Below are positions 24,253 to 43,064 of a stretch of DNA of 56,633 nt, piece by piece. A program made the translations under genes and the position numbers. Source of the DNA: a virus; IMG/VR virus record IMGVR_UViG_3300033182_000185, one strand, 5' to 3'. The notes beneath the pieces are model-generated. The model made no database searches and was not told the origin of the DNA. It saw nothing but the letters and a program-made list of their open reading frames with translations. Positions within the stretch are counted from its first letter, which is position 1. Each line of letters begins with the position of its first letter.

Positions 24253-24263
24253 TTTATCTCCCT

Positions 24264-24619: not shown

Positions 24620-24633
24620 TATTCCTCCTTCGT

Positions 24634-29205: not shown

Positions 29206-29347
29206 GCTTATCCCTTTCCTTTTTAAGTGAATATAGATACTCCAGGTAATGATCTTCTTCATCTTGCTTTTGCATCTCATCTAACCACTTTTCATATTCC
29301 TCCTTGAATTGTTCTTCTTCTGTTACTTGTTGCTGTCTCCAACTCAT
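29198..29347 (-). CDS. Small acidic hypothetical protein (49 aa)
   Basis: Hand translation: MSWRQQQVTEEEQFKEEYEKWLDEMQKQDEEDHYLEYLYSLKKERDKHE*. It has an ATGA overlap with ninB and overlaps the annealase start by 8 nt. Confidence 0.45.
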   Translation of the reverse strand: MSWRQQQVTEEEQFKEEYEKWLDEMQKQDEEDHYLEYLYSLKKERDKHE

Positions 29348-29754
29348 AACTGATTGATCTCCCTGCTCATGGTTGTTGGGTTATAGAATCCAGCCTCAAT
29401 CAAAGCAGATTCAACTCTTTCCATATACTCAGCGAACTGTTCAACGCTAAGCCCTGATGTTTGTACTGCTACTTTTACTGGCTCTCCTTCTAGGTTAGTT
29501 ACTGTGTTAGTCCCCAGGATTTGAACACACATGATTGAGTGTAACTCGTTAGCAGTATATCCGATTTCGTTTGCAGCTGCTCTAATAATGTGCCAATACC
29601 TGTTGTTCTGGTCAATAGACCTCTGGTTCTTTTTGTTATATGGTCTTATGATAACTTCATAAGGTTCCTTAGAACTATTCTTTAGCTCATTTATATAATC
29701 AATACATCTATTCTTCTGGTGTAAATCATACAACTTGAACCGTTGTGTTTTCAT
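29344..29754 (-). CDS. ninB: NinB/Orf-family recombination mediator
   Basis: 136 aa. 'RSIDQNNRYWHII' and 'QTSGLSVEQFAEYME' parallel lambda NinB 'RSLDQNRKLWACL' and 'STSRMRVGEFAELLE', recalled from memory. Confidence 0.65.
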   Translation of the reverse strand: MKTQRFKLYDLHQKNRCIDYINELKNSSKEPYEVIIRPYNKKNQRSIDQNNRYWHIIRAAANEIGYTANELHSIMCVQILGTNTVTNLEGEPVKVAVQTSGLSVEQFAEYMERVESALIEAGFYNPTTMSREINQL

Positions 29755-30017
29755 TTATCCCTCCATTCTATTATACCATATTCGAATGCCCTGCCTATTG
29801 TCTGTAAACACCATCTCATCTGAGTTTCTTTATCAATCGTACCATTGTGACAATCAGCATGACAATTATAACATACCGGTAATGTGAAATAGTCTGGAAC
29901 TTTCTTTCCCATTCCTGCGCCAAGAGTATTGACTCTAAGATGGTGAGCCTGGGATTCTTTTGCACAGTATATACATGGCTGTTCCGCTACCCATTGAAGA
30001 TACTTCTTATTCTTCAC
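29751..30017 (-). CDS. DUF968/Ref-like HNH-type zinc protein
   Basis: 88 aa with 'PCIYCAKESQAHHLR...GMGKKVPDYFTLPVCYNCHADCHNG'. Confidence 0.5.
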   Translation of the reverse strand: MKNKKYLQWVAEQPCIYCAKESQAHHLRVNTLGAGMGKKVPDYFTLPVCYNCHADCHNGTIDKETQMRWCLQTIGRAFEYGIIEWRDK

Positions 30018-30544
30018 TTCACTCTCCGGTATGGATTAAATACTCTTTGTAGTTCTAACTCCCATTCTTCTATCATAGGTATTATATTATTAAAGTAATT
30101 ATATTTAATATATCTATTAAATATATGTCTATTTTTTTCTAAGTATTTTTCTCTAGTAATATTAGACATAGACTTTCTCCCCATACCTGAACACAAGTCA
30201 CAAGTGTATAACTTATCTAAGATTATAACCTCCTTTCTTCCGTTACACTTCGGGCATATGGATGGATTGGTCATCTCATCTAATGCCAGGTTTACTATGT
30301 TAAATATATCTTCTGGCGTTATTGTCTTGTTCCATTTAAGTTTCATTGCCTCATCAAACAACGGCCTCAATAATTTGTTGCGCCATTTTTTTTCAAGACA
30401 ATACTTGTACCTACCATAAGATGCTGCTATGTCGCTTGCTCTTGCTAGAGTAGCCGCAATATCCTCCCAGGGTGGACCACCTCTTTGCTCAAGAACAGAG
30501 CTAGATTTAATTGTTAAATATTTAAGTGCTTCCAAACCCGACAT
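30014..30544 (-). CDS. Zinc-ribbon protein, possible Q-type late antiterminator
   Basis: 176 aa. 'CPKCNGRKEV-(9)-CDLCSGMGRKSM' parallels lambda Q 'CRDCHGTGRAV...CGRCKGVGYSRM', recalled from memory. It lies in a nin-like gene neighbourhood. Confidence 0.4.
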   Translation of the reverse strand: MSGLEALKYLTIKSSSVLEQRGGPPWEDIAATLARASDIAASYGRYKYCLEKKWRNKLLRPLFDEAMKLKWNKTITPEDIFNIVNLALDEMTNPSICPKCNGRKEVIILDKLYTCDLCSGMGRKSMSNITREKYLEKNRHIFNRYIKYNYFNNIIPMIEEWELELQRVFNPYRRVK

Positions 30545-30731
30545 CGAATATACTCTTGTAAATTATTTTATTTGGATTCCTGTCGCCCATTATTTCTCCA
30601 GTTTCATAATAGTTTTTATATGATTCGCATGCAAGTTTGCTGTCTGCACACCTTTTATATTCAGTACAAGGAGTACATGGAGCATCCTCACTTGCTATCG
30701 CTCTTGCCAGACTAAAGTATTCACGCTTCAT
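30522..30731 (-). CDS. Cys-rich hypothetical protein
   Basis: ORF track, 69 aa (CTPCTEYKRCADSKLACESYKN). Confidence 0.5.
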   Translation of the reverse strand: MKREYFSLARAIASEDAPCTPCTEYKRCADSKLACESYKNYYETGEIMGDRNPNKIIYKSIFDVGFGST

Positions 30732-30900
30732 TTGTTTTCAAAATATATTGTAAGACATGATTGGTTCCTGATATAAAACTCCTAGCCTCTTTAAGATTAT
30801 CTTTGCTATAAGTTTCAAGCAATTCCATTTCTCGGCTATTCTTTTTCTTTCCCCAAACTTCAAAGCCCAGCGTTTGTTCCATGATTTCTTCTTCATTCAT
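30721..30900 (-). CDS. Small hypothetical protein (59 aa)
   Basis: Hand translation: MNEEEIMEQTLGFEVWGKKKNSREMELLETYSKDNLKEARSFISGTNHVLQYILKTNEA*. It has an ATGA overlap with the upstream gene. Confidence 0.45.
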   Translation of the reverse strand: MNEEEIMEQTLGFEVWGKKKNSREMELLETYSKDNLKEARSFISGTNHVLQYILKTNEA

Positions 30901-31208
30901 TTTAATTTCTCCCTAAAATCCTTAGCCCTAAAGACTATAAGTGTATCATCAAACGATGCGCCGTTTTCTTTTATGAAAACTACAGGAACTTTACCATCCC
31001 TGGATGATGCTACCGCTTGCTCCATTGCTTCCTTGATCCATCCAGGTATTGACTTACGATACTTGCATTCAATAGATAGACGATCACTTGTAACATCTGG
31101 CGCACTACCTCTTGACCTACCTGTTATTGGAACCCTATTAGATTTATCCCCTAACTCAGTAAGGAATTCACCTACCCAACGCTCAAACTTTTTCCATGTC
31201 TTATCCAT
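30897..31208 (-). CDS. Hjc/PD-(D/E)XK-type Holliday-junction-resolvase-like nuclease
   Basis: 103 aa with 'RVPITGRSRGSAPDVTSDRLSIECKYRK' (G-x-x-x-x-PD ... E-x-K). Confidence 0.5.
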   Translation of the reverse strand: MDKTWKKFERWVGEFLTELGDKSNRVPITGRSRGSAPDVTSDRLSIECKYRKSIPGWIKEAMEQAVASSRDGKVPVVFIKENGASFDDTLIVFRAKDFREKLK

Positions 31209-32988
31209 CTATTCTCATTGGCGGAACTTCTCTTGCAGCATTGTATGGCAAATGATATGTTCCAGTTCTCCAGTTATAAGTTAATTCTCCAACACCTATC
31301 TTACCATCCTGCTTGAACCTAACCTTTTGGATATGAATCTCAATGAGACTACCTCCATCAGTAGATAGGTCCCGCCATACGGTGATACAGTTATCAGACT
31401 TATCCCTCCATCTAGCAGAACCACTAATGTCATACGGAGTTGGGATAGGAATCTTTCCATTCTTATCACGATATAACTTGGCAGGATGGGCAACAATCCA
31501 CAAATGTATACCATACTTTCTAGCAAATTGACGTACCCTTTTTAGTGCCACAGAAATATATTCTGTCTCAGACTGACCATCTCTACGCAAGTGTTCAAGC
31601 TCATTCCACGGGTCAATAACAAGACCACGGATACCCTTAGTAAGTACCAACCTTTTCGCAGCATCTAGAATCACATCAATAGACCACTCCTTATCATCGT
31701 CAGGCAGAATCCAGGTAAAGTGTTTGGTCAGCCACTGCTTGCCATCTTCCAGTTCTTCCTTAGTCATACATGGAGTAGGTCCATCGAAGAAAGGATGACC
31801 AACATATTTCTCTAGCACCCTAGCCATATGATCTTCAAGTGGTTGATTCTCTGGTGAAAAGATAGCGAAGTTCCAGCCATGATTCTTTGCTATATTCACC
31901 ATCATTGCATCTAACCAATTTGATTTGCCACTACTGGGTATACCTGTTACTACTGTAAATGCACCTGGTCTAACTAAATAGTATGGATCAACAGTCTCCC
32001 AACCTGTGCTTACACCCTTCTCAATGTCTCCCTCATAAAGCCTGTCTATTGAATCAGATAGATTTGTAGCATCGTAAGTACCCATGATTGGATATGGCTT
32101 AGCGTGCTCAATGCACTCAGACAATACAGTTTTACCATATTTAACCAAGACATCGTTAGCATCTTTACATCCTTCAGGCCACACTACTCTATAACATCTA
32201 TCCTTGCCTAGTCTGCGGGATAATTCATTCTCTAGTTTTGCACCAGGTTCATCGTTATCAACAGCAATAACAAACCTAGAAACATTATTAAACTTCTCTG
32301 AGTGTAGCCACGGATCATTCAAATAATCAAACTTAGATGAGTAATCAGAACTATTAACAGGTGGTGCTCCATCTGGCACACTCACACAAGTTCTAATCCC
32401 TGCCTCCCATAATGACAACTTATCTATCTCCCCCTCAACAATAACACAATGTATATCTTCACCTTCAATGTCATCAATGCCGTAGAATCCACGCTGTGCT
32501 CCCGCCTCTAAACGAAAGTTCTTCTTTCCATCCCTATACTTTACGTTGATTAATTCACCGTTCTTATAGTATGGAAAAGCAATTGAGTTAGACAGCGCCT
32601 CTATCTGTGGCATATAAACCTTGCGCTCATTTATCTTGTTCTCTTCTAGAGTTGTCTCACTTACACCTCTATCAGCAAACCATTTAACAACTTCAGGACT
32701 AAGCGCAGTAACAGGTAGTGGCTCAGGCTTGGTGAACTTAGGCTTTCTCCAATGCAGTGATACATTGTTCCCATTGGTTCCATTGCTTAGCGTTCCCGAC
32801 CAACCACAGTGATGGCATAGCCACACACCTTCATCTATATTTACAGACAAGCAAGGTGCTTTCTTTTTCCTGCGTTGAGAAGAACATTCTGGACATTGTG
32901 TATTTACCTGGCCAGCTGAGCTGCGAGCCGGTATCTTTATACCAAAATCGCTAAATGTTTTCATTTCTTTTCCCTGTTTCTTATCCAT
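31201..32988 (-). CDS. Bifunctional DNA primase-helicase (T7 gp4-like: zinc finger + TOPRIM + DnaB-type helicase)
   Basis: 595 aa with 'CPECSS...CHHCGWSG', TOPRIM 'VIVEGEIDKLS...VDND' and Walker A 'GIPSSGKSNW'. Confidence 0.9.
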   Translation of the reverse strand: MDKKQGKEMKTFSDFGIKIPARSSAGQVNTQCPECSSQRRKKKAPCLSVNIDEGVWLCHHCGWSGTLSNGTNGNNVSLHWRKPKFTKPEPLPVTALSPEVVKWFADRGVSETTLEENKINERKVYMPQIEALSNSIAFPYYKNGELINVKYRDGKKNFRLEAGAQRGFYGIDDIEGEDIHCVIVEGEIDKLSLWEAGIRTCVSVPDGAPPVNSSDYSSKFDYLNDPWLHSEKFNNVSRFVIAVDNDEPGAKLENELSRRLGKDRCYRVVWPEGCKDANDVLVKYGKTVLSECIEHAKPYPIMGTYDATNLSDSIDRLYEGDIEKGVSTGWETVDPYYLVRPGAFTVVTGIPSSGKSNWLDAMMVNIAKNHGWNFAIFSPENQPLEDHMARVLEKYVGHPFFDGPTPCMTKEELEDGKQWLTKHFTWILPDDDKEWSIDVILDAAKRLVLTKGIRGLVIDPWNELEHLRRDGQSETEYISVALKRVRQFARKYGIHLWIVAHPAKLYRDKNGKIPIPTPYDISGSARWRDKSDNCITVWRDLSTDGGSLIEIHIQKVRFKQDGKIGVGELTYNWRTGTYHLPYNAAREVPPMRIDG

Positions 32989-33182
32989 TCACATACTGCT
33001 GATTCAAGTTCTTCTTTGGTATGGAATTCTCTATCATCTACATATCTATATGTGATGTTATCTGATATCATAAACTTCCATCTCTTACCATCAGCGGTAC
33101 GGTTTCTCTCTACTCTATGAGTATCGTCACCTTCTATTCTACCAAACATAAATGCTGATCCCTTTCCCCATTTAATGAACAT
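32961..33182 (-). CDS. Hypothetical protein
   Basis: ORF track, 73 aa. Confidence 0.5.
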   Translation of the reverse strand: MFIKWGKGSAFMFGRIEGDDTHRVERNRTADGKRWKFMISDNITYRYVDDREFHTKEELESAVCEWIRNREKK

Positions 33183-33399
33183 CTTCTGGGCGCTCTACTC
33201 CAGGCGGTGTTAACTCAGGAATCCTTCCTAACCTTTCCTTAGCATCCATCATTTCTCTATGAGCAATTATAATAGATACTAATGCGTTGGCTTCTTCCCA
33301 AGTGAGATGATACGAAAGATAATCCTCATCGTCACCAAAGCCTAACAATAAACCCCTAGACAAATCATCTTTGTCAAAGTATTCTAAATCTAAAGACAT
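33172..33399 (-). CDS. Acidic hypothetical protein
   Basis: ORF track, 75 aa, D/E-rich (FGDDEDYLSYHLTWEE). Confidence 0.5.
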   Translation of the reverse strand: MSLDLEYFDKDDLSRGLLLGFGDDEDYLSYHLTWEEANALVSIIIAHREMMDAKERLGRIPELTPPGVERPEDVH

Positions 33400-33429
33400 T
33401 TAATTTCTCCTATATATATTATAACATAC

Positions 33430-33651
33430 TCACATCACATAACCGAAAGGATTATTATCCGTACTATCCATTATATCACAGCACTGAATCACATCAAACC
33501 CTCTCATTCTTAAACGTGTCATATCATTCATGATAGCATCATCCTTACCATCATCAACACTATATGATGTTTCATCTAGTAAGAACATAAGTATATCATA
33601 ATCCTCGTCAGTAAGTTCTACTGAGTTATCAAACATTTGCGTTTGTGTCAT
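33430..33651 (-). CDS. Highly acidic hypothetical protein
   Basis: ORF track, 73 aa (ELTDEDYDILMFLLDETSYSVDDGKDD). Confidence 0.5.
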   Translation of the reverse strand: MTQTQMFDNSVELTDEDYDILMFLLDETSYSVDDGKDDAIMNDMTRLRMRGFDVIQCCDIMDSTDNNPFGYVM

Positions 33652-34507
33652 GTCTCTCTTTCATCCTTTTTAGGTTAGGCCCAAAACAACTTTCTGGAAT
33701 ATCACTAACAATACTTAGTGCTAACTTCTCTGCTTTAGCCAATTCTTCCGAGCTTCTAACAAACCTGGCAACGTGCAGCCTACGAATCATACCAGAGTTT
33801 GGAGCAGCACCATAAGCATTCAACTCAGATGGCTTAAACATCTCTAAAGCCATATGGTAAAGCCCTGTTTTTATACCCCTAAAGGTAGCATATAATTGGT
33901 TATACTCAATGAGAAAATCACTATCCAACCTGGCTTTAGTCATCTCTTTAACGTGCTTTGTATCCAACTGGTCCTTCATTGGCTTATCTTCAGCGAACTT
34001 TTTCTCACCTCGCTTGATCTCTTTAGCGCCCTTAACATCACCATTCTTACAGAACCTGATGATATTATCTTTCTTTTCAAACACTTTGCTCACTTCATAA
34101 TGCTTACGTCTAACATCGGACTCATCCTTATCGTAGATAAAATATCTTTTATCTCGGCAATCATAGTAGTGTATGTTAGGTGGCAGCACAGATAGAATCT
34201 GCTGATCCAGGTTATATACCCAATGCCTTCCTCCTCTGGACACAGAAAAATCTACCTCAATATCCCCATCATCGTAGTATTTTATCTGAGTCTGCGCTAA
34301 CGTTGGATCATCTTCTTCTGGAGTATTATCACTGTAATGTCTGCTCTTCATATCAGCCTTAAAAGCATACCCATCATCCTCTCTAACTATAAAGAAATTC
34401 TGATGCTCAAGTCTTGCTATCTGAATCTCATAATCATAGTGTTTCTTGACAGCATCCAGGCCATTGTTAAAACTAGAAAACCTATAATCATCATGCATTA
34501 AAGACAT
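33629..34507 (-). CDS. Hypothetical protein, last gene of the AAA/VWA cluster
   Basis: ORF track, 292 aa. No motif recognised. Confidence 0.6.
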   Translation of the reverse strand: MSLMHDDYRFSSFNNGLDAVKKHYDYEIQIARLEHQNFFIVREDDGYAFKADMKSRHYSDNTPEEDDPTLAQTQIKYYDDGDIEVDFSVSRGGRHWVYNLDQQILSVLPPNIHYYDCRDKRYFIYDKDESDVRRKHYEVSKVFEKKDNIIRFCKNGDVKGAKEIKRGEKKFAEDKPMKDQLDTKHVKEMTKARLDSDFLIEYNQLYATFRGIKTGLYHMALEMFKPSELNAYGAAPNSGMIRRLHVARFVRSSEELAKAEKLALSIVSDIPESCFGPNLKRMKERHDTNANV

Positions 34508-34516
34508 TTTATTCTC

Positions 34517-35641
34517 CTATTCAATAGTTATTACTTCACCGAAAGGACACAAAGTATCCTTCGCACCGTAGTTTACCCATATCACTGGGTAATCTGGTTC
34601 ATACTGAGGAAACGAACCGTACAAATCTGTGAAATATATTAGCACGGCTGGGTCCTCATCGTTCTCAATGACCCAATCAAACGCAGGCTCAAAGGCTGTG
34701 CCACCTCTGCCAACTACCTCTAGTGCATCAGGTAGATCATCCTTTGAGAACCTTCGTATATGATTAACGTCAGTATCCACATCCATAATGATAAGCTCAT
34801 CGACATCACAGTCCTCCACTACTGATACTATCTCAGACCAAGCCTCAATCAATAGATCAGTATTCATTGATCCACTTGTGTCAACCGCAAAGATAATTTT
34901 CCGCAGTCCATCAATCTTTGTTATGGATGGAAGGTATAAATCCTTGCCTATGAACCTACGATTGGGACGCCTCCATGAATGTTCATCCCTCATTGGTTCA
35001 GTAGCAAGAGCATATAACTTATCTCTCCAGTCTACCTTTGGATTACGTATCTCATTGATTAGTTCTTTGAAGTGACCTGGAATAGTACCTCTGTTCTTAC
35101 TGCAAGCATTTGCTGCTGCAATAATTTTAGTCTTCCACTTGTTCTCAGTCTCTGACTTGTCTGCCTCGCTCTGACCTTCACCGTCTTTGAAGTGTCCTGT
35201 ACATGGCATATCTCCAAGACCTTTTATAGTAATCCGCTTTGCGTTCTTGAAAAGATCATCATACACCTTGTCAGTATTCCAGGTGTCGTCATACTTTCGA
35301 TCAAGAAGAACATCAGCAGGGGGTTTCATTCCGTTATCAACAAGCAACCGATTGATAACATAATCACCCGCCATATTCCATATAGTATGATCACGAGTGC
35401 CCTTTCTTGTTAGATGAAAGAAAGCAGGATGCATAGTCTCATGCATTAAAACAAACTTGAGGTCTTCCATACTTAACGTCTGAATAAACTCACTGTTGTA
35501 ATAGATAAAGTTACCATCAACAGCAAACGTTGGTATGTTATTGTCCTCTTTGATTGACATCGACAAAAGCAAATGCCCAAAGAAAGGGTAGTCCATCAAG
35601 CATTGTGCTCTTGCTATCTGTAACTTACGTTCAATATCCAT
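34517..35641 (-). CDS. Metallopeptidase-like (HExxH) + von Willebrand factor A domain protein (DUF2201-type)
   Basis: 'LMHETMHPAFFHL' (HExxH) in the N-terminal half and MIDAS 'IIFAVDTSGSM' in the C-terminal half. The start is set at ATG 35641 (MDIERKLQIARAQ...). The track GTG start at 35686 is also possible. Confidence 0.7.
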   Translation of the reverse strand: MDIERKLQIARAQCLMDYPFFGHLLLSMSIKEDNNIPTFAVDGNFIYYNSEFIQTLSMEDLKFVLMHETMHPAFFHLTRKGTRDHTIWNMAGDYVINRLLVDNGMKPPADVLLDRKYDDTWNTDKVYDDLFKNAKRITIKGLGDMPCTGHFKDGEGQSEADKSETENKWKTKIIAAANACSKNRGTIPGHFKELINEIRNPKVDWRDKLYALATEPMRDEHSWRRPNRRFIGKDLYLPSITKIDGLRKIIFAVDTSGSMNTDLLIEAWSEIVSVVEDCDVDELIIMDVDTDVNHIRRFSKDDLPDALEVVGRGGTAFEPAFDWVIENDEDPAVLIYFTDLYGSFPQYEPDYPVIWVNYGAKDTLCPFGEVITIE

Positions 35642-36560
35642 ATGTCCCGTCCAGTTTAGACATTGTTTGATCGAAGGTTTCTTCACTACAAATGTAACCT
35701 ATTACCTTATTGATATGTCGATAAGCCTCCTTTTGTTTTGTCTCATTACCTCTCAAGTCATGAGCATAAAGATACAGATTCTCTTTCATATAGGTTTCTA
35801 AGTCTGTCAAAAAAGTGTCATCAGTAAAATTCAATTCACTAATTGAGTCGATTAGATTCCTAAGTGATTCCATCCTGGACTCATACACTGTAACCCTGTC
35901 AGATGATAGTATATTTTTGAGGCCATGCATCTCGCTCTCAATCCTATGAGTAAGAAGTTCCTTCATCTTTTCCATGCTCTTGGCTACGCTATCGTGCACC
36001 TCTTTTCGTATCCGCTCAGCCTCAAGTTCACCAACTGAAGCCCTCAAATCCATGTTGTGTTCCTCTGGAATAGGTCTGAGGTACTGTTCCATCTTAAATC
36101 TATCAGTGAACTCCTCAACTGTTAGATAGTCTGATGCATCAAACATACCACCTTTCTTGTTGAGCCTAATCTCTGCCTCATCAAGAGCCTCCTGATACTT
36201 ACCATTCTTTAAGGCTTGTATCTCAGAATCCCACAAGGCTTTCTGCTTGCGCCAAACCTTTGAAAACTCTAGGATTTTCTTGTTAGGTAAGATAAATACA
36301 CCACCACTCTCATGCAACCAGGGTAACGTCATGGTTTTAATTGTTGAGTTTGGTGCTTCAACCATCTTGGATTTGATATTCCTAAATGGCTGAAGATATT
36401 TAGATGAGATTGTGATCTTGTTAAAGTTACCAGAGTCACGACTACCTCCCTTCACATTGTAATCACTGGCAACCTTCTCCGATATATCTCTGTCTACCTT
36501 ACGTCCGGAAGGGATAGACATTGATACACTTAACAGCATACCTTTCTTAGATAATGGCAT
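35631..36560 (-). CDS. Hypothetical protein between the AAA ATPase and VWA genes
   Basis: ORF track, 309 aa. No motif recognised. Confidence 0.6.
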   Translation of the reverse strand: MPLSKKGMLLSVSMSIPSGRKVDRDISEKVASDYNVKGGSRDSGNFNKITISSKYLQPFRNIKSKMVEAPNSTIKTMTLPWLHESGGVFILPNKKILEFSKVWRKQKALWDSEIQALKNGKYQEALDEAEIRLNKKGGMFDASDYLTVEEFTDRFKMEQYLRPIPEEHNMDLRASVGELEAERIRKEVHDSVAKSMEKMKELLTHRIESEMHGLKNILSSDRVTVYESRMESLRNLIDSISELNFTDDTFLTDLETYMKENLYLYAHDLRGNETKQKEAYRHINKVIGYICSEETFDQTMSKLDGTYGY

Positions 36561-36568
36561 TGTATCTC

Positions 36569-37585
36569 CTATGAATCAAGTCCAAGTACATCCAAGTTAT
36601 CAACAGCCCACTCTACAAACTCAGGCGCATCCTCAATCTCAGGAGTAATCTTCCTGGCCTCGGTCACACTCGTTACAGCATACTCAGCAGGCAATCTATC
36701 AAGATAAGCCATGATACTTTTCATGTTATCAGGCTTCATCCAGTAAGCAAGAGAGTAAGCGATAGCATACTGAGCACTAGGATTCTCAGGAACCATTGCT
36801 TTCTTAGGGTCTTTGATTACCTGTTCTGGATCAGGCACCTGGCCCGCTACCTCCTCATGACTAACGAACTCAGCAGCAGCGCCCTCGCCTACCAATCCAG
36901 AGTACAGTTGGAACTTAATAGAACTAGATGGGTTAGTACCTCTGACTTGAGATAACTTTTCCCACTGTCTTGGTGAGCACCACGCCCATGATCCACCCTT
37001 ATCAGGGCGCTTATGAGCCAGATGACCGTGAGTTTTAAGGAACGATGTAACCATTGGGTCAACACCTTTAGCTGTGAAGTGACTGAGCAATTCAGAAACA
37101 TCCAGCGTAACCATGTAGTGCATGAACCTGTTTTGCAGGGCATACGAAAGTCCACGATTAACTCCACCGTGTTCCTTCTTATTCATCATGGCTACGATGT
37201 GCCAACCTTTTGGGAATACATAACTCCCAACCCTCTTCTCAAGAATCAACTGTTGAGATGCAGTGATAGTTGCTTGTGACCCATCACCAAACTCATCAAG
37301 AATGAATAGACCCTGCTCACCATCACGATCTACGTTAGGCAACATAGATGGTATGGCAAACTCTGTGAACCCATCACGCACAGTAGGCACACCGCTCAAG
37401 TCTACCGGATCAAGTTGAGATAATCGTACATCTTTCACCGCACCGTACTTATCCATACCATACTTGGTGACAGCCTCAGTCTTGCCGATGCCTGACTCAC
37501 CAGAGAACAAGCATGATATACCAAGACTAGTGGCGACATCCAAGATTTCTGGTATCTGACTAGGTGTAATAGTAATTTCGGACAT
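36569..37585 (-). CDS. AAA+ ATPase (MoxR / AAA_5-like)
   Basis: 338 aa from the ATG preceded by AAGGA. Walker A is 'GESGIGKTEAV' and Walker B is 'LFILDEFGDG'. The 22-aa N-terminal extension in the track is rejected. Confidence 0.8.
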   Translation of the reverse strand: MSEITITPSQIPEILDVATSLGISCLFSGESGIGKTEAVTKYGMDKYGAVKDVRLSQLDPVDLSGVPTVRDGFTEFAIPSMLPNVDRDGEQGLFILDEFGDGSQATITASQQLILEKRVGSYVFPKGWHIVAMMNKKEHGGVNRGLSYALQNRFMHYMVTLDVSELLSHFTAKGVDPMVTSFLKTHGHLAHKRPDKGGSWAWCSPRQWEKLSQVRGTNPSSSIKFQLYSGLVGEGAAAEFVSHEEVAGQVPDPEQVIKDPKKAMVPENPSAQYAIAYSLAYWMKPDNMKSIMAYLDRLPAEYAVTSVTEARKITPEIEDAPEFVEWAVDNLDVLGLDS

Positions 37586-37596
37586 AACATTTATCC

Positions 37597-37812
37597 TTAA
37601 TGAATTGAAAGTGAAGGCCCATAGGATGCGATGACAAGCAATGAAGCACACTTATCCTTCGCTACGTTGCATGATATATGGGGGCTACGATCATCGGGGC
37701 CTAGTCGATAGACTGTAACCTCTTCCCCATCATGCATCTCTTTCACTGGCATAGCACTACTTATGAGGTCATCAAATGAGATGACAATATCCTCATCATC
37801 ATACGCATTCAT
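37597..37812 (-). CDS. Hypothetical protein (71 aa)
   Basis: Track ORF trimmed to the ATG preceded by GGGAGGATATCAAGA (MNAYDDEDIVISFDD...). Confidence 0.5.
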   Translation of the reverse strand: MNAYDDEDIVISFDDLISSAMPVKEMHDGEEVTVYRLGPDDRSPHISCNVAKDKCASLLVIASYGPSLSIH

Positions 37813-38020
37813 TCTTGATATCCTCCCAAGTTTTGTTTGCATCTACAAGATACTGTGCTTGTTCCTCTAACTGCTCATGAGTCATTAGCACTTCTCTTTT
37901 CCTGGCGTACCTGGATTTGATTGCATCTTTCTCATCCATTTCCTTTACTACCTCGGCAAACTTCTTGATTACCTCGGCATTACGCCCATGAAACACCTTG
38001 TTTTGAAAAGTAAATACCAT
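37799..38020 (-). CDS. Hypothetical protein
   Basis: ORF track, 73 aa. Confidence 0.5.
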   Translation of the reverse strand: MVFTFQNKVFHGRNAEVIKKFAEVVKEMDEKDAIKSRYARKREVLMTHEQLEEQAQYLVDANKTWEDIKNECV

Positions 38021-38081
38021 TACAGTTCCTCGTTTGCACCATAAGGTTGGCGCGTTACCTATCCGTGAGGGTCACGGAATT

Positions 38082-38579
38082 CTATATCTGCACCTTGAAC
38101 CAGTCAGGTCTGGTCGCAGGCCACTTCCAAGATGCAATGTGTGCTTTGCCACCACAGTAGTAATTTCTGTAAGCTTGCACTGTGTCACTATGCTTGTACT
38201 CGTCAGGCATACACTGAGGGGGCGGGATAAAGTCATCATCAGGTATATTATCTGGCACTTTACGAAGTGCGTCAAGCAATTCACCTGATTTATGCGGTGG
38301 TCTGTTGGGATATCGGCGCAATTTCTCAGCAAGTAGCGCTTCAAAGTGGGAAATTAACCACTCATAGTGTGATTTTGATGACCGTGCCCACACTGTAGAG
38401 GGGTGATTTAGATGTGCAACCTTGTACAAATCGTGCTGATCTGCATAGCCGTCACCGTCCAGGTGCCTGTGTGCTGTGCACAATATCTGTGCAGTTTCCA
38501 ACGGCATCTTGACTATATGCTTGTTGACTTGACACACAGCAGATACAGCAGGGTCAGTATGTAAGAAAAAGATATTCAT
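38082..38579 (-). CDS. Conserved-looking hypothetical protein
   Basis: 165 aa. The N-terminal 'MNIFFLHTDP...NKHIVKMPLETAQIL' pattern recurs in uncharacterised phage and bacterial proteins, from my recollection. Function unknown. Confidence 0.6.
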   Translation of the reverse strand: MNIFFLHTDPAVSAVCQVNKHIVKMPLETAQILCTAHRHLDGDGYADQHDLYKVAHLNHPSTVWARSSKSHYEWLISHFEALLAEKLRRYPNRPPHKSGELLDALRKVPDNIPDDDFIPPPQCMPDEYKHSDTVQAYRNYYCGGKAHIASWKWPATRPDWFKVQI

Positions 38580-38588
38580 CTAACTCGT

Positions 38589-38897
38589 TTAACTCCTTTG
38601 CCTATATTTAATCTCCTTAAAGATGGAAGGCAATGACTGACCAACTGGCCTCACTCCCTTACCCATATTATTGGCAAGATACCAGTACAAATCAGACTGC
38701 ATCTTACTTAGCAGGTAGTTCTTATAACATATTGCGTTCTTTTTGTCAGCACAATGGACCATCTCACGCTCGGAACCATCAGCATTTATACGCACTACCA
38801 CGTACCTGCCCTTAAACCAGCCTTCTCCATCCCTGATCTCAACCTGAGTATTCATAGCAAACTCTTTCAGTTTGCTGCTCTTGGATATCTCGGTCAT
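38589..38897 (-). CDS. Hypothetical protein, paralogue of the mini-ORF 39000-39146
   Basis: 102 aa with SD GAAGGAGGGAC. It shares 'VEIR...G(K/R)YV...G(S/E)ER...A(I/L)CYKN(Y/H)L' with the upstream mini-ORF. Confidence 0.6.
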   Translation of the reverse strand: MTEISKSSKLKEFAMNTQVEIRDGEGWFKGRYVVVRINADGSEREMVHCADKKNAICYKNYLLSKMQSDLYWYLANNMGKGVRPVGQSLPSIFKEIKYRQRS

Positions 38898-38999
38898 TGT
38901 CCCTCCTTCGATATGATCCCTTGCCTTTGGCAGGCTTGTGTGTCCTGGCCTTGTTCTGGCCTGCGTTCTTTGCTACTGGATTACGCCTCACCGTCCTGC

Positions 39000-39146
39000 T
39001 CACTCGTATCCCCTTGAATGTAAATGGTTTTTGTAACACAGTGCAGTCTGATAGTCTGAGAAATACACCAATGACCTCTCGCCAAACTGATCTGTCACCC
39101 AAATGACATACTTGCCATCATGATTCTGCCTGATCTCGACCATCAT
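39000..39146 (-). CDS. Small hypothetical protein (48 aa), paralogue of 38589-38897
   Basis: Hand translation: MMVEIRQNHDGKYVIWVTDQFGERSLVYFSDYQTALCYKNHLHSRGYE*. SD is GGAGAGAGG. It overlaps the end of 39118-39321 and replaces track ORF 38839-39102. Confidence 0.55.
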   Translation of the reverse strand: MMVEIRQNHDGKYVIWVTDQFGERSLVYFSDYQTALCYKNHLHSRGYE

Positions 39147-39321
39147 CCTCTCTCCATTCGATCGTCGGCATCTTTAAAGCAAACTTTACATGACGCCTCA
39201 GTGTATCCAGGTCGCCTGACATACCCATCTTCTCAGCGACACGCCTCAGCTCGCTAGCAGTCCAACTACCCACAAGTTTGTCAACCAGCTCTGATCTTCT
39301 GATCTCGAAAGTAAACTCCAT
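39118..39321 (-). CDS. Hypothetical protein
   Basis: ORF track, 67 aa. Confidence 0.55.
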   Translation of the reverse strand: MEFTFEIRRSELVDKLVGSWTASELRRVAEKMGMSGDLDTLRRHVKFALKMPTIEWREDDGRDQAES

Positions 39322-39581
39322 TATCCCTCTCCGTTTCTGTGGCTTTTCTTCACCTCAGACCAAGTGCTTAGGTATCCATTCTTTTTCTTGGCCTCGGCTA
39401 GAATCTCAGCATGCAATTCCAACTTAAAGTCATGCCACGTAAGCGCCCTACATGACTGCTCATCCGCGTCTATTTTAGGCACGTGCTCGTCTCTCTCCCA
39501 GCGGTCAGCTATCCGCCTATGGTACTTGCTCTTTACGTCAGCCCAAGCCAACATCCCAACCAACAGTTCCATTCTTTCCAT
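39321..39581 (-). CDS. Hypothetical protein
   Basis: ORF track, 86 aa, with SD TGGAGGTATC upstream of the ATG. Confidence 0.6.
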   Translation of the reverse strand: MERMELLVGMLAWADVKSKYHRRIADRWERDEHVPKIDADEQSCRALTWHDFKLELHAEILAEAKKKNGYLSTWSEVKKSHRNGEG

Positions 39582-39731
39582 GATACCTCCATAGTTTAAC
39601 GTGAAAGTGTGAGCAGTTTACCAGGATGAAGTCATGCTCAGGACTTACAATGAGCATACCCTCAATTAGAGGGGGGACAAACTGAAATTTGCCCTCTCTA
39701 ACTCATTGATTTTAAAGGGGAAAAATAGACC

Positions 39732-39774
39732 AAAAATGACATTATAGTACCCCCCCACCATAATGTTATTTTTT
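39732..39774 (-). terminator. Conserved palindromic element with a C7/G7 loop flanked by A5/T6 runs (copy 2; partner at 24264-24305); candidate intrinsic terminator
   Basis: aaaaatgacattatagta-ccccccc-accataatgttatttttt. In the minus sense it forms a 10-bp stem (one G-U), a G7 loop and then CATTTTT. It lies directly after the stop of the mini-ORF 39766-39912. Confidence 0.55.
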
Positions 39775-39912
39775 GTATCTCATTCGGGCAATGCGAGGCC
39801 TACCTGCACCACGCCTGATCTTGCGAATCTTTGGGTTTGACTTCCGCCTGGGCGCAGGCACAGCAGGCAACACCTCTACCCAAGCCGATACATCACGATC
39901 AAAGTATCTCAT
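39766..39912 (-). CDS. Small basic protein (48 aa) with an AT-hook-like GRP core
   Basis: Hand translation: MRYFDRDVSAWVEVLPAVPAPRRKSNPKIRKIRRGAGRPRIARMRYKK*. SD is AAGGAGGGC. It has a TAATG overlap with the upstream gene. Confidence 0.5.
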   Translation of the reverse strand: MRYFDRDVSAWVEVLPAVPAPRRKSNPKIRKIRRGAGRPRIARMRYKK

Positions 39913-40097
39913 TAGCCCTCCTTCTTCTCGTAGACAGACAAGTAACTGTTCAATCCATCCCTGAGCATGAATAAACTCTCAAGGTTGGGCGTTTCCTGGA
40001 TCAGGATTCTGACTATATGGCTAACTTGCGCCTCAGTCAGGCTTACATCTTTTTCCTGATAGAGATGATTTTCTTTGCCAATTTTAACTGATTGCAT
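39912..40097 (-). CDS. Hypothetical protein
   Basis: ORF track, 61 aa. Confidence 0.5.
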   Translation of the reverse strand: MQSVKIGKENHLYQEKDVSLTEAQVSHIVRILIQETPNLESLFMLRDGLNSYLSVYEKKEG

Positions 40098-40309
40098 TAA
40101 CCCCCCTCAATCTCAGTTTCTACCACCAGTTCAGCCATGTCGTAGTGGCCAAACGGCTCACCATAAGTGATCCACTTGCCAATACACCCATACATTCCAC
40201 GTTGCCAGACCCATATCTGCCATGAGTCGGGCAACCTTTCGATCCACCAGCCTTGTTCGATGATCGCCTGATCTTCTCGCTCAGCCTTTTGTCTCTTGAA
40301 GTATGTCAT
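40097..40309 (-). CDS. Hypothetical protein
   Basis: ORF track, 70 aa, with SD CCAGGAGGTGCAATG. Confidence 0.6.
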   Translation of the reverse strand: MTYFKRQKAEREDQAIIEQGWWIERLPDSWQIWVWQRGMYGCIGKWITYGEPFGHYDMAELVVETEIEGG

Positions 40310-40639
40310 TGCACCTCCTGGATTGTGGGTAATTAGTGGGCCTTTTTAGATGGTATACCCCATCACAGTCATGCCCAGGACTGGTGATACCCAGCATCAG
40401 ATGCCCTATCTACTGACCCCTCCGGAGCGGTTCAGAAGTATCACTTTGAAAAGTAGATCAGCGCAGGAGGTGTAGAACCCTCTTTAGATCGCATGGGGCC
40501 GACATCGCTCCCGTACCAGGATCAGGCCGGATTCTACTCTAGGCACACTCCGTTACCAGAGTGCCCATTTGTTAACCCACTGTGCCTCTCTACAAGTTGA
40601 CTGAGAGGATCACACTATTTCTAGTGTGAACCCCGCTGA
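40310..40639 (-). ncRNA. Candidate structured RNA segment A (330 nt, no ORF of 60 aa or more in any frame)
   Basis: The segment is GC-rich; for example, 40501-40560 has 34/60 G+C. Minus-sense hairpins include CACACUA-GAAA-UAGUGUG (40611-40628) and AGGCACA/UGUGCCU. Others are AUCACCAGUC/GACUGUGAU and UUCAAAGU-GAU-ACUUcUGAA. It shares a 14-mer and a 13-mer with segment B. Confidence 0.45.
40596..40615. repeat. Inverted repeat, arm 1 (pairs with 41186-41205; 19/20 complementary, the mismatch is a G-U in minus-sense RNA)
   Basis: gttgactgagaggatcacac compared with the reverse complement of gtgtgatcctctcaatcaac. The arms bracket ORF 40640-41146. Confidence 0.9.
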
Positions 40640-41146
40640 CTAGGCTGCTTCAGTGACTTCCTGCAACTGCGCCACTTCTGCCATCTTGTTCTGAAGTCCA
40701 TTGTAGGCCTCCAGAGCGTCGATGTACTGAATCCGCGCTTCAGATTCGTGCTTCTCGATCGCTTTGGTCATGCTCTCGAATGCCTTTTTCATCATCCAGG
40801 CAGACATGACTTCATCGGTCTCGAAGTCGTACCATTTGCGCGCAAACAGTTCATCCTGGTCGAACTTGAACTCTGATTTCTTGGCCTTCTTGAAGGTCAA
40901 TTTCTTAGAATCCCAGTTCACCTGGCACACCTCAGACACGAAGCCAATAAGTTTGGTCTTATTAACCCCGTTGACTTTGGTAATCTCCCGACAAAGCATG
41001 GAAAGATAGGTGCTATCCCCATGCTCAGCGTAGTGCCAAGCCGCGGATATAAACAAAGCATGCACCTTGTCTTGCCATTTCAGACCGCTTGTTACAGTCC
41101 GTTTGATTGCCGTGCCGAGGTCTTTTCCGATTTTGATGATTTCCAT
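40640..41146 (-). CDS. Hypothetical protein (168 aa) embedded in the structured RNA region
   Basis: ATG 41146 is preceded by GGAGAACCGCAACG. Sequence runs MEIIKIGKDLGTAIKRTV...KWQDKVHALFISAAWHYAEHGD... with a C-terminal coiled coil. The track TTG start at 41200 lies inside the inverted repeat and is rejected. Confidence 0.6.
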   Translation of the reverse strand: MEIIKIGKDLGTAIKRTVTSGLKWQDKVHALFISAAWHYAEHGDSTYLSMLCREITKVNGVNKTKLIGFVSEVCQVNWDSKKLTFKKAKKSEFKFDQDELFARKWYDFETDEVMSAWMMKKAFESMTKAIEKHESEARIQYIDALEAYNGLQNKMAEVAQLQEVTEAA

Positions 41147-41715
41147 CGTTGCGGTTCTCCGTTTGTCTCGTTGTAGATCACGGAAGTGTGATCCTCTCAA
41201 TCAACGCATATCCCTCACCGTTACCAGTTCCATTTTCAGGTTACAGACTAGGTTTGAGAATCAAGGTGCTCTTGAACTCTGGCTCAAACCCCGCTAAGAC
41301 CCCTACGCTTTCGCGAACATTCCCTAGCGGTATAACTAGCCTCATTCGGTCTTGTCGAACCCAGTCCTTCACCTCCCTATTGAGATGTTTAGTCAAATTT
41401 ACTCTTTGGAGTAACTGCATGGTAATCCGTGCATCCTGGATACCTGACGTTCTGGTTAATTAGTGGGTTCAGTCTCACATTATCGTTAAAGTTTGCCGTT
41501 TTTGCGCCCTATCCCGCAGGAATCATGGGGCCGACACTCTACCTTGCGGTAGGCAGTAACTAGCGAATCTGCTAACATTGACCGTCGCGTCATGGGTATG
41601 ACCGCTGATTTTTTGCTCTGGCTCAGCCCACGTTTTACGCACCGGGTTTCGTGGTACTCTCGCTCACCGTAGATGCGACTGCTTCTATGCATCTCTGGAG
41701 GGTCTTTCGCTCCAG
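41147..41715 (-). ncRNA. Candidate structured RNA segment B: a ~570-nt leader between the early promoter and the first ORF
   Basis: Minus-sense hairpins include CUACC-GCAA-GGUAG (41539-41552) and CCGCUA[...CGC-GAAA-GCG...]UAGCGG (41291-41330). Others are GGUUUGAG...UCAAG-AGCAC-CUUGA...CUCAAACC (41251-41290) and GAUCAC-ACUUCC-GUGAUC (41176-41193). Only one poor 68-aa ORF without an SD is present. Confidence 0.45.
41186..41205. repeat. Inverted repeat, arm 2 (pairs with 40596-40615)
   Basis: See arm 1. This arm lies about 40 nt upstream of ATG 41146. Confidence 0.9.
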
Positions 41716-41722
41716 TGCATTA

Positions 41723-41751
41723 AATATAGCAACACCAGCCCCCAATGTCAA
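41723..41751 (-). promoter_or_regulatory. Near-consensus sigma70 promoter of the early (minus-strand) arm
   Basis: Minus strand reads TTGACA (41751-41746), then a 17-nt spacer (ttgggggctggtgttgc), then TATATT (41728-41723). The predicted start is near 41715, immediately followed by the hairpin CTGGAG-cgaaagacc-CTCCAG. Confidence 0.7.
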
Positions 41752-41911
41752 CTTGACCCCTATATAAGCGTTTTAATATATTCGAATATTAGGATTTGGA
41801 AGGTACTCCGAGGGGTCTATCGGGGCGATCCAAGTCCAGGAATCCTGATGCGTAGCCCCATAAGACATAATAAAAAAACGACATTAACAACACACTTGCT
41901 GTTTACTAAGG

Positions 41912-42205
41912 ATTTAGTAATGTTGCAAAAAAACAACAATTGGTTGACTGGTATATATATATTGGTATAGAGTTATTTGGTATATAAAGCACTTTGGCTT
42001 AGCGGCAAATTTTTTTGGGGGGGGTATAATTAACAACGCACTAGCCTTTTACCAAGAGTTTAGTAATGGTATATAATTGGGTGTAATATTGGTATGTATA
42101 TAGGCTATTTTGGTATATAGGTAATAGATTAGCCGTTGGCTTAGCGGCCAATCGTATGGGTCCCATCCAGAAAATAGGGGTCCCAAAATTTTTTGGGGGA
42201 TATAC
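41912..42205. repeat. Origin-associated duplicated unit (~146 bp x2) carrying TGGTATA(T/G)A iterons
   Basis: Each unit has TTTAGTAATG (41913, 42059) and three TGGTATAKA copies (41949, 41963, 41978; 42067, 42090, 42111). Each also has TTGGCTTAGCGGC (41994-42006; 42136-42148) and a T-run/G-run (42010-42024; 42189-42199). Confidence 0.8.
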
Positions 42206-42206
42206 T

Positions 42207-42293
42207 TTATCCACAAGTTATCCACAGACTTATCCACAGGTTAAAAAGGTGGTAAATATATGATTTTAAATGGGAATCAGAAAGTTATCCACA
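42207..42293 (+). promoter_or_regulatory. Cluster of four perfect DnaA boxes (TTATCCACA), all in the same orientation
   Basis: Exact 9-mers lie at 42207-42215, 42218-42226, 42230-42238 and 42285-42293. Confidence 0.85.
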
Positions 42294-42307
42294 GGTAAGG
42301 GGTTCCC

Positions 42308-42393
42308 TTATTATAATATATATATTAATATATAATATATATATATTTATACTTCACTATATAATATATATTATATATATAATATTAATATAT
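42308..42393. other. AT-rich tract (candidate DNA unwinding element)
   Basis: 86 nt contain only three non-A/T bases (c at 42352, 42355, 42357). The tract is largely (TA)n-like and lies immediately beside the DnaA boxes. Confidence 0.7.
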
Positions 42394-42493
42394 CTTTGTC
42401 TTGTTCCATTTAGCAAAATATTGTGCAAGAATGCTAAAATATATGCTAAATAATTGATATCTTTAAAAAGTGTACAGCCTAGACCCCCCAATA

Positions 42494-42502
42494 TGGTATA
42501 AT
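42494..42502 (+). promoter_or_regulatory. Extended -10 element (TGGTATAAT), candidate promoter of the late (plus-strand) arm
   Basis: TGnTATAAT lies about 95 nt upstream of terS. No good -35 is present, which is acceptable for extended -10 promoters. The same TGGTATA core as the iterons makes the assignment ambiguous. Confidence 0.4.
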
Positions 42503-42523
42503 ATAAGTAAAGATTCGGGGCAC

Positions 42524-42584
42524 GTGTCGGCACCATCTCTCCCCTCGATAGAGGGTCCCTTCTCCCTTCTCGCTGACACGGCCC
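42524..42584 (+). promoter_or_regulatory. GC-rich stem-loop in the terS leader
   Basis: GGGGCaCGTGTC (42524-42535) pairs with GACACGGCCCC (42574-42584). This encloses the inner hairpin CCCTC-gata-GAGGG. No U-run follows. Confidence 0.45.
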
Positions 42585-42596
42585 CACTTTACACCT

Positions 42597-43064
42597 ATGG
42601 GGAATATGGCAGCAAATCCAGTTAAACGTAGACATGGCCAAGAAGTACACAAAAGTGTATGGACTACGGCCAACAAGAAAAAAGTAATTGAAATGTTCGG
42701 GGCAGGAGCAACCGTAATTGAGGTATGCAGGTTCCTGGGCATCCATAAAGCTACGTTCTATCGGTGGCTCAAGGATGAGCGCAAGAGTGATTTCCAGCGT
42801 ACTGTTGAGCTGGGTATCCAGGCATCAGAAGCACATTGGATTCAGGTCGGTAGAGACAACCTGGAAAACAAATCCTTTAATACCTCCCTGTATGCATTTA
42901 TGATGGTCAACAAATTTAACTATCGTTCCACCTATTCCAAACAGGAAGTGGACAAAACTGAAACCAAGAAAACTACAGTTGAAGTCAAGAAGGCCGTGGA
43001 TGTTGACTCTATCATTGACAAACTGAACGAAAGCATGGAGGAGAAGCCTGAGCTTCTGAACTAA
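42597..43064 (+). CDS. terS: Terminase small subunit (HTH DNA-binding)
   Basis: 155 aa with the HTH 'ATVIEVCRFLGIHKATFYRWLKD'. It is the first gene of the late arm. An alternative start is at 42606. Confidence 0.6.
   Translation: MGNMAANPVKRRHGQEVHKSVWTTANKKKVIEMFGAGATVIEVCRFLGIHKATFYRWLKDERKSDFQRTVELGIQASEAHWIQVGRDNLENKSFNTSLYAFMMVNKFNYRSTYSKQEVDKTETKKTTVEVKKAVDVDSIIDKLNESMEEKPELLN

Follow-up and report, generated by a model that had tools for sequence, protein, structure and literature searches.

How does a tailed phage begin to copy its DNA when its genome offers neither a recognisable initiator nor a recognisable polymerase? The question is raised by the IMG/VR virus record IMGVR_UViG_3300033182_000185, whose whole 56,633-nucleotide (nt) sequence, referred to here as the window, was assembled as a circle; its ends overlap by 141 nt, giving a true genome length of 56,492 bp. 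Searches of PHROGs, Pfam and PDB sequences with all open reading frames (ORFs) of at least 250 amino acids (aa) and with selected early ORFans detected no DNA polymerase and no initiator, and the phage genome carries no dnaA gene. DnaA-dependent origins are textbook knowledge for chromosomes, some plasmids and temperate elements, and virulent tailed phages are generally thought to supply an initiation system of their own. In the 1.4-kb non-coding control region that separates the two transcription arms of the window, a module at 42207-42396 holds four DnaA boxes, a putative integration host factor (IHF) site and an A/T tract. On balance, this module is probably a replication origin that depends on host DnaA and IHF, a compact phage counterpart of that half of a gammaproteobacterial-type oriC where unwinding takes place. 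An original prediction for this region had described an origin that combined a duplicated iteron unit with DnaA boxes and a nearly pure A/T tract. Its DnaA-box and A/T half is supported by conserved spacing, an IHF-type site and the geometry of the left half of oriC, while its iteron half is not, so the layout is oriC-like rather than iteron-plasmid-like.

The exact DnaA box TTATCCACA is found on the + strand at 42207, 42218, 42230 and 42285, the four perfect, equally oriented copies that had been predicted, and has no other copy on either strand of the window, where about 0.6 would be expected from base composition. The first three form a distal array (42207..42238, +) with gaps of 2 and 3 bp and an 11/12-bp register. 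All boxes are direct, with none in opposite orientation and no inverted-repeat frame. Next comes an interspace of invariant length (42239..42284, 46 bp), which carries on the - strand an IHF-type core, AATCATATATTTA (42253..42265), matching 12 of the 13 positions of the consensus WATCAANNNNTTR. In all members of the phage's clade this putative core is offset by 19 nt from the proximal box, the core offset in E. coli being 18; among 11 aligned relatives the motif changes little or not at all at its consensus positions, and variation is seen at two of its four N positions. The proximal box itself (42285..42293, +), the equivalent of R1, starts 55 bp after the start of the array's last box, has no mismatch to TTATCCACA and is identical in 22 of 22 distinct related sequences. 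The distal array of the relatives is looser, with one to three exact boxes and the remainder degenerate (TTATACACA, TTATTCAAA).

Beyond the proximal box stands a G+C-rich spacer, GGTAAGGGGTTCC (42294..42306, +), of 13 bp, fixed in length and variable in sequence among relatives. It opens onto four triplets of the DnaA-trio type at 42307..42318 on the - strand (+ strand CTT ATT ATA ATA, - strand 3'-GAA TAA TAT TAT-5'), each with a central A; four to five consecutive triplets, in a frame that starts at spacer 13, are present in 19 of the 22 sequences. The A/T tract (42308..42396, 96% A+T) is the candidate DNA unwinding element (DUE). Its first 86 nt (42308-42393) contain three C and no G, in agreement with the three non-A/T bases counted in the original prediction, and by nearest-neighbour free energy no duplex in the genome is less stable than the tract (z = 6.3, 80 bp). 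The second least stable duplex (30080-30161, 89-95% A+T) falls inside a 176-aa ORF (30014-30544, - strand) and was rejected as an alternative origin, being coding and without boxes or repeats.

The distances in this module are those of E. coli. Read from NC_000913 on the TTATCCACA strand, oriC presents R5M (TCATTCACA), 46 bp, R1 (TTATCCACA), a 13-bp spacer (GGGCAGTGCGATC) and the DUE (CTAATAAGAGATC...); the phage presents TTATCCACA (42230), 46 bp, TTATCCACA (42285), a 13-bp spacer (GGTAAGGGGTTCC) and the A/T tract (CTTATTATAATAT...). The 55-bp start-to-start distance from R5M to R1, the 46-bp interspace, the 13-bp spacer and the pointing of the box toward the DUE are therefore identical in the two. 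Order and orientation are also shared with the left half of oriC (DUE-R1-IHF site-R5M/tau2/I1/I2, the left DnaA-oligomerisation region, Left-DOR), including the position of the putative IHF-type site in the interspace. As in Left-DOR, the distal array has one orientation, is phased with the proximal box and has 2-3-bp gaps, which is the spacing of E. coli low-affinity arrays; unlike in Left-DOR, the boxes of the array are perfect high-affinity boxes and not low-affinity ATP-DnaA sites. In E. coli, Left-DOR together with IHF suffices for DUE unwinding, and IHF binds the interspace that separates R1 from R5M (PMC10325909).

Comparative evidence comes from IMG/VR metagenome contigs, among which 40 related loci were retrieved through the small terminase (TerS); no near relative was found among 50,697 deposited phages. 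When 22 distinct sequences are anchored on the proximal box, column identity is 1.00 in that box, 0.92 in the distal box at -55 and 0.90 in the 12-nt trio segment, and then 0.75 in the 46-bp interspace, 0.68 in the 13-bp spacer and 0.62 in the flanking 40 nt after the trio segment. Neither the 46-bp nor the 13-bp spacing has suffered an insertion or deletion in about 25 distinct versions, whereas the flanks are rich in them. From the boxes to the A/T tract the relatives keep 77-82% identity, a coding-like conservation, while the adjoining non-coding DNA no longer aligns. The module is kept in every relative with a TerS identity of at least 81% whose contig spans the region, and in these relatives it takes its place in one ordered set of elements. 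From left to right, the set consists of back-to-back sigma-70-type promoters; AAGGTACTCC...GGAATCCTG...CCCCATACATATAAATAAAAAAA; TAACAACAC; a variable G/T-rich stretch; TGGCTTAGCGG; a palindromic A/T-run with a G-run; the DnaA boxes, the 46-bp interspace, the further DnaA box and the 13-bp G+C-rich spacer; CTTATTATAATA with the A/T tract; a variable array of TATCTn with hexamer period; GCTAAA repeats; an extended -10 promoter (CCCCCCAATATGGTATAAT); and a structured leader.

The same spacing recurs outside this clade. A scan of IMG/VR for the exact pattern box-N46-box-N13-CTWATWATA returned 37 contigs with 25 distinct versions, among them at least six sequence types beyond the clade of the window (L208/L212; L284; L283/L287/L290/L291/L294/L299 with L265; L230/L236/L286; L252; and L202). 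Exact WATCAANNNNTTR at an offset of 18-19 is present in five of these six types, with the rest of the interspace differing, and is missing from L202. In L208 the module occupies a divergent intergenic region and heads a replication cluster, with a DnaB-like helicase at most 1 kb away and with a regulator, RusA, Erf (57% identical to that of the window) and ribonucleotide reductase (RNR; 83%). In L230 its neighbours are a repair exonuclease on one side and SSB on the other, and it has nine boxes and the trio run CTA ATA ATA ATA ATA. Because the module accompanies replication genes in differing genome contexts, a role in replication is argued for. We propose, with more reserve than we attach to the origin itself, that a portable origin cassette of about 190 bp is spread through uncultured phages, on at least 37 IMG/VR contigs of about seven lineages, and copies the spacing of the proteobacterial oriC unwinding half; such a cassette would let virulent phages without initiator or polymerase start with host DnaA and IHF alone and pass the bubble on to a primase-helicase of their own, and, with no GATC for sequestration and with high-affinity boxes only, it would escape once-per-cycle control. 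These phages are taken to be marine by assumption.

The stretch to the left of the boxes bears on the iteron half of the original prediction, and its components were described there correctly. Unit copy 1 (41883..42028, +) contains TAACAACAC, TTTAGTAATG, three TGGTATAKA repeats, the 13-mer and a T7G8 run that ends in TATAAT; unit copy 2 (42029..42206, +) contains TAACAACGC, TTTAGTAATG, TGGTATA-type repeats, the 13-mer TTGGCTTAGCGGC, two GGGTCCCA and the palindromic CCCAAAATTTTTTGGGGG. A unit of about 146 bp had been said to be present twice, and the alignment of the copies confirms this, with 77% identity over 128 nt and a score of 83 against 9 +/- 4 for shuffles (maximum 32). TTTAGTAATG (41913, 42059), TTGGCTTAGCGGC (41994, 42136) and the T-run/G-run each occur twice and nowhere else in the window. 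The TGGTATA(T/G)A repeats lie on the + strand at 41949, 41963, 41978, 42067 and 42111, with the variant TGGTATGTA at 42090; TGGTATAKA has six exact copies in the whole window, five of them within 170 bp, against 1.0 expected, and none of 100 shuffles reaches six. The repeats, the 13-mer, the T-run/G-run and the duplicated element are thus all real features at their predicted positions. As an intrinsic terminator the T-run/G-run is unconvincing, since its stem consists of A/T pairs and three G-C pairs only.

The iteron-plasmid layout built on these components does not stand. The 146-bp duplication is private to this genome: relatives align from 41919 straight to 42029 and skip the body of copy 1, which has no counterpart in them, and copy 2 is orthologous to the single unit found in all of the roughly 20 relatives that cover the region. 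Iterons would be direct repeats of 17-22 bp in regular helical phase and conserved among relatives, whereas the TGGTATA repeats are 9-mers at irregular intervals of 14, 15, 89, 23 and 21 bp. In relatives the number of TGGTATA/nGTAT copies ranges from 2 to 8, their positions, spacing and flanks are not conserved, and the stretch that bears them, 98-272 nt long, is the least conserved part of the region. The repeats moreover share 7 of 9 bases with the extended -10 promoter motif of the phage itself, TATGkTATAAT, which precedes genes at 29778(-), 33426(-), 42494(+) and 48479(+). Extended -10 promoters of the sigma-70 type have TGn ahead of a hexamer with A at -11 and T at -7. Set against the phage's TGGTATAAT promoters, TGGTATATA and TGGTATAGA match at these 7 of 9 bases and have A rather than T at the critical -7, and one repeat site (42048-42077), together with a -35 element, scores 10/12 as a promoter. 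The "duplicated iteron unit" is a lineage-specific duplication of accessory, poorly conserved repeats that resemble promoter motifs.

An iteron-type origin nevertheless has its own evidence. In such an origin, a phage initiator would act on TGGTATA, the 13-mer or GGGTCCC, and DnaA and the A/T tract would be helpers, as in P1 oriR, pSC101 and R6K. The core shared among relatives, nGTAT/TGGTAT, is enriched at this position in all of them and is strand-specific, 7 relatives having between them 40 GTAT on the + strand and a single one on the - strand, 6.8 times the background. Both TGGCTTAGCGG and the T-run/G-run are invariant across the clade, GGCTTAGCGG and the T-run/G-run being so in 11 relatives, and many early genes have no known function. 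On the other hand, PHROGs, Pfam and PDB sequence searches detected no Rep-like family in the neighbouring or early genes, several of which are ORFans, so that absence is not proven; no rep-like gene lies adjacent; and the same searches drew no informative match for the 186-, 292-, 309- and 422-aa ORFans and ten small early ORFs, in keeping with the earlier remark that a protein reading the iterons is not obvious from the gene set. Other lineages with the DnaA/IHF module do not share the TGGTATA repeats. With the unconserved 9-mers, the genome-specific duplication and the likeness to the start of the extended -10 motif, this makes an iteron-type origin improbable.

The palindrome GGGTCCC (7 bp), one of the sites considered above, is an observation in its own right. 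It stands at 42158, 42178 and 42553, its three copies in the genome, all in the control region, which speaks for the iteron reading; a variant, GGGTTCCC, is at 42300. The G+C spacer after the proximal box of the relatives often reads GGGTCCC, and the palindrome could be a site for a dimeric factor.

Repeats near terS also invite a reading as a packaging (pac) region, in which the TerS encoded 200 bp downstream would recognise the repeat-rich flanks (the TGGTATA array, TATCTn hexamers and GCTAAA repeats). Short direct-repeat arrays are typical of TerS binding sites, the region adjoins terS, and several related contigs break here. These contigs end at scattered sites (the equivalents of about 42090, 42212, 42243 and others), inside low-complexity DNA, which we read as assembly breakage; a physical genome terminus in the region was rejected. 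A promoter and a structured leader stand between terS and the repeats, several relatives have additional genes between terS and the region, and the DnaA/IHF core would be left unexplained. A pac function is accordingly very improbable.

Several further observations weigh against a host-dependent origin at 42207-42396. Unlike E. coli oriC, the phage has no right half (R2 and the R4/C/I array), which E. coli uses for helicase loading; it also has no GATC/SeqA sites and no GATCTnTTnTTTT 13-mers, and its DUE is (TA)-rich. Without the right half, GATC or these 13-mers, the element is not a complete oriC. The interspace is not significantly similar to the E. coli sequence (score 11 against 3.7 +/- 5.1 for shuffles, of which 194 of 2000 reach it), so that the claim is one of shared geometry and not of common descent; the geometry may be convergent. 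The trio pattern, NAN at least three times, is easily satisfied in A/T-rich DNA and is weak when taken alone. The DnaA-box and A/T region lies at the arm switch and at the minimum of the cumulative GC skew, but this minimum coincides with the switch in gene orientation, which makes GC skew unusable as independent evidence. In the related locus L033, whose TerS is 67% identical, boxes, 13-mer and A/T tract are absent at the equivalent position, and the family can therefore dispense with the module there. As L033 has kept the left element together with the late promoter, the leader and three TTTTTTGGG motifs, the module is an insert in an older control region.

Furthermore, DnaA boxes by themselves prove little, because clusters of them exist in T5-like phages and in phage nasanit. 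In T5-like phages, also virulent, eight conserved DnaA boxes lie in the non-coding injection-stop region, which is not an origin (10.1101/866236). Escherichia phage nasanit (L282, PV245933.1), a cultured T7-like Berlinvirus, has 6-7 box-like 9-mers (GTTATCCACA) at 2440-2560, four of them exact, between its large-terminase and early genes in a stretch annotated as small hypothetical ORFs. Tandem perfect boxes with 2-3-bp gaps occur on at least 120 IMG/VR contigs for each of two looser patterns; among the matches listed, the contigs are diverse, of high and low G+C, with flanks that often read (A/G)G TTATCCACA GG, and most are without IHF, spacer and A/T features. Such clusters would suit a DnaA sink or anchor, where the boxes titrate DnaA to halt host initiation, or hold the genome, on entry or when packaged, to membrane-bound DnaA, as has been proposed for the T5 injection-stop region, and no replication starts. 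Tandem triple boxes in very varied contexts fit this idea. It needs boxes alone, though, and gives no reason for an IHF core at a fixed offset, a fixed spacer of 13 bp, a trio frame or an adjoining duplex of least stability. The T5 boxes form pairs 3 bp apart in inverted repeats, in a terminal repeat far from mapped origins, whereas those of the present phage are all direct; the nasanit cluster lacks the IHF offset, spacer and trio and adjoins no A/T tract; and the scattered ends of related contigs give no sign of a defined terminus. A sink or anchor therefore seems to us a poor candidate, and the argument for an origin rests on the added geometry of IHF site, spacer, trio and DUE.

A last objection comes from promoters. 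A sigma-70-like TCCACA-18-TATAAT (42288-42317) overlaps the proximal box and the conserved TTATTATAATA, so conservation could instead reflect a promoter controlled by DnaA. The module might then be a DnaA/IHF-controlled transcription switch that regulates this or the leftward early-arm promoters of the divergent region and is no origin, which would tie the timing of phage genes to the host's DnaA-ATP level. TTATTATAATA is invariant and contains a perfect TATAAT, and promoter-like sites overlapping the module on both strands number 13 against 5.4 expected. The module also sits between early and late promoters: to its left are two back-to-back sigma-70-type promoters (41723..41782; 11/12 and 10/12 matches), a leftward TTGACA-17-TGnTATATT from 41751 to 41723 and a rightward TTGACC-18-TATATT at 41753-41782, the latter recognisable in several relatives, and to its right the extended -10 promoter TATGGTATAAT of the late (terminase) arm (42492..42502, +) marks the border of the control region. 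This late promoter is conserved in all relatives, L033 included, and L033, with promoters and no module, is what an optional regulator would predict. Three observations speak against such a switch. In L024, L202 and L252, TATAAT stands 15 bp, not 18, from TCCACA, while the distance from box to first triplet is still 13 bp; an 86-nt, nearly pure A/T tract and 55-bp phasing are more than a repressor or activator site requires; and 180 bp downstream there is already another late promoter, itself conserved. A transcription switch is hence unlikely, although it deserves serious consideration.

If the module is a host-dependent origin, a sequence of events can be proposed. Host DnaA-ATP would fill the three phased boxes and the proximal box, and IHF or HU would bend the 46-bp interspace at 42253-42265, uniting array-bound and proximal DnaA in one oligomer. 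This oligomer would cross the 13-bp G+C spacer onto the trios of the - strand and then melt the (TA)-rich tract. The bubble might be taken by the phage's own self-loading gp4-type primase-helicase, which would also prime, or by host DnaB recruited by DnaA. Because a phage polymerase gene was not found, a host polymerase would probably carry out elongation, as for satellite phage P4. GATC does not occur in 41900-42600, so SeqA could not sequester the origin in the way it does oriC, and repeated firing would be possible; with perfect boxes in addition, the origin would be insensitive both to the ATP-DnaA threshold and to the sequestration that restrain oriC. The left units (41883-42206) would be accessory and may be sites for RNA polymerase or a phage factor. 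More speculatively, flanking transcription may aid opening, from the 41753-41782 promoter, the TGGTATA elements or a leftward TTGCTA-18-TATATT (42416-42387).

The genes around the module are arranged in two arms. On the + arm lie those for TerS (42597), the large terminase (44907), the portal (845), the major head protein (4386) and an SU10-type adaptor (7297), and the structural arm ends in a 2741-aa ORFan (14784-23009, +) with no Pfam or PHROG match. In size and position it is reminiscent of the giant proteins that N4-like and crAss-like podoviruses eject and of their virion RNA polymerases. Early and replication genes occupy the - arm (23458-41200). Its T7 gp4-type primase-helicase (31201-32988, - strand) has 595 aa and ends at the helicase domain, without an additional DNA-binding domain, and it is accompanied by SSB, Erf, exonuclease, NinB, RusA, a class II RNR and dUTPase. 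Also among the early genes, a MoxR-type ATPase (36569-37651) is paired with a DUF2201 VWA/metallopeptidase protein (34517-35686). In the distant relatives L033 (1050-1320) and L035-L037, a peptide-deformylase-like protein, with the motif QHE(L/M)DHL(D/N)GK read from DNA, is encoded directly upstream of the TerS gene, and several very basic small proteins are also encoded; the window has neither these nor the deformylase-like protein. As to the host, TTGACA/TGnTATAAT promoters and the IHF-type site point to a proteobacterium, and a search of 185,579 species genomes with the clade-specific pattern gave one unrelated single-box match, in a Saccharibacteria metagenome-assembled genome.

Several other elements of the control region merit description. 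Downstream of the late promoter, the leader of the late operon (42517-42585, +) forms a conserved stem of 14 bp, inside which lie a small hairpin, CCCTC/GAGGG, and a pyrimidine-rich stretch, TCCCTTCTCCCTTC, that is invariant. Four pairs of the stem have compensatory double changes among 11 relatives and Rfam offers no match, and the leader may act on the terminase operon as a new cis-regulatory RNA. To the right of the back-to-back promoters, a conserved element at 41798-41870 (AAGGTACTCC...ATCCAGG...GGAATCCTG...CCCCATA...AATAAAAAAA), present in L033 as well, contains a helix, GGATTCC/GGAGTACC, that is fully paired on the - strand only (G-U where the + strand has C-A). Its consensus fold is weak on both strands, and there are hints of either a - strand RNA or a protein site; a tRNA-like appearance at 41800-41860 was not confirmed. 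Downstream of the leftward promoter, some 650 nt (41200-41860, about 50% G+C) hold no credible ORF in any frame and are conserved only in some relatives (L004, L013); this stretch could be a long leader or a non-coding RNA. Rfam returned no family, either in a gathering-threshold scan of the whole window or in a permissive scan of 41150-42650, and the window contains no tRNA or tmRNA.

To the right of the A/T tract, an array of hexamer period, ((A/T)TA(T/C)CT)n, behaves like a microsatellite: it has about three units in the window (42394-42411) and more than 20 in L012 (3490-3620) and L024 (3330-3480), and is also present in L004 (3216-3250). GCTAA(A/G) motifs flank the core, on the - strand of both 13-mers (GCCGCTAAGCC; 41994, 42136) and at 42415(-), 42432(+) and 42444(+), and a conserved TTAGCAAAAT in the area of 42409-42452 doubles as the leftward promoter TTGCTA-18-TATATT at 42416-42387.

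Against known phages, the region has no near match, and a distant search gave only a 37-nt DnaA-box match in coliphage nasanit; against plasmids, it has a single 62-nt match at chance level. We found no earlier description in the literature of a conserved, spacing-exact DnaA/IHF cassette across phage lineages; Ori-Finder predictions of oriC-like regions in single phage genomes exist, without comparative support (PMC11512268, PMC12484599). If the origin reading is true, the module would be a natural "minimal oriC" of about 190 bp, consisting of the unwinding half only, and an independent evolutionary test of whether such features and distances of oriC as the 55-bp phasing, the spacer of 13 bp and the offset of IHF really matter. 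Some lytic phages, again assumed to be marine, would then depend on host DnaA and IHF, and this dependence would bear on their host range, their sensitivity to the growth state of the host and the prediction of phage origins in metagenomes, where a cassette that recurs beside different replication genes could serve as a searchable marker.

Among phage systems, P4 resembles the present phage in gene content, with an alpha primase-helicase that works with host Pol III and no phage polymerase; its alpha protein binds ori repeats of its own and is independent of DnaA. The primary origin of T7 consists of tandem promoters followed by an A/T-rich tract, and the phage likewise has promoter-like elements upstream of its A/T tract; T7 lacks DnaA boxes and relies on an RNA polymerase of its own. 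The plasmid origins P1 oriR, pSC101, R6K gamma and F oriS are similar to the phage region in bringing DnaA boxes, an IHF site, an A/T tract and repeats together within a few hundred bp. They need a cognate Rep protein, encoded next to the origin, on regularly phased iterons of 17-22 bp, however, whereas the phage repeats are short, irregular and unconserved.

A further bacterial parallel, besides oriC of E. coli, is the basal unwinding system (BUS), as in B. subtilis incC (Richardson et al. 2019; Pelliciari et al. 2021). The search pattern for BUS allows up to 2 mismatches to TTATCCACA in the box and 0-16 bp of spacer (mode 13), and it asks for no fewer than 3 NAN triplets on the DnaA-bound strand (PMC8287927); the trio consensus is 3'-GAT-5', and an A/T-rich element follows. 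In the phage, a box with 0 mismatches is followed by a spacer of the modal 13 bp, oriented to the trios, by four triplets and then by the A/T tract, so that a perfect box and a spacer precede at least four central-A triplets on the correct strand, as in BUS. Two features depart from it: the proximal box is single and not one of a tandem pair, and the triplets are of an A/T-only type (GAA, TAA, TAT, TAT) and not GAT-rich. The upstream cluster of boxes, which lies in helical phase, could deliver DnaA to this site by looping.

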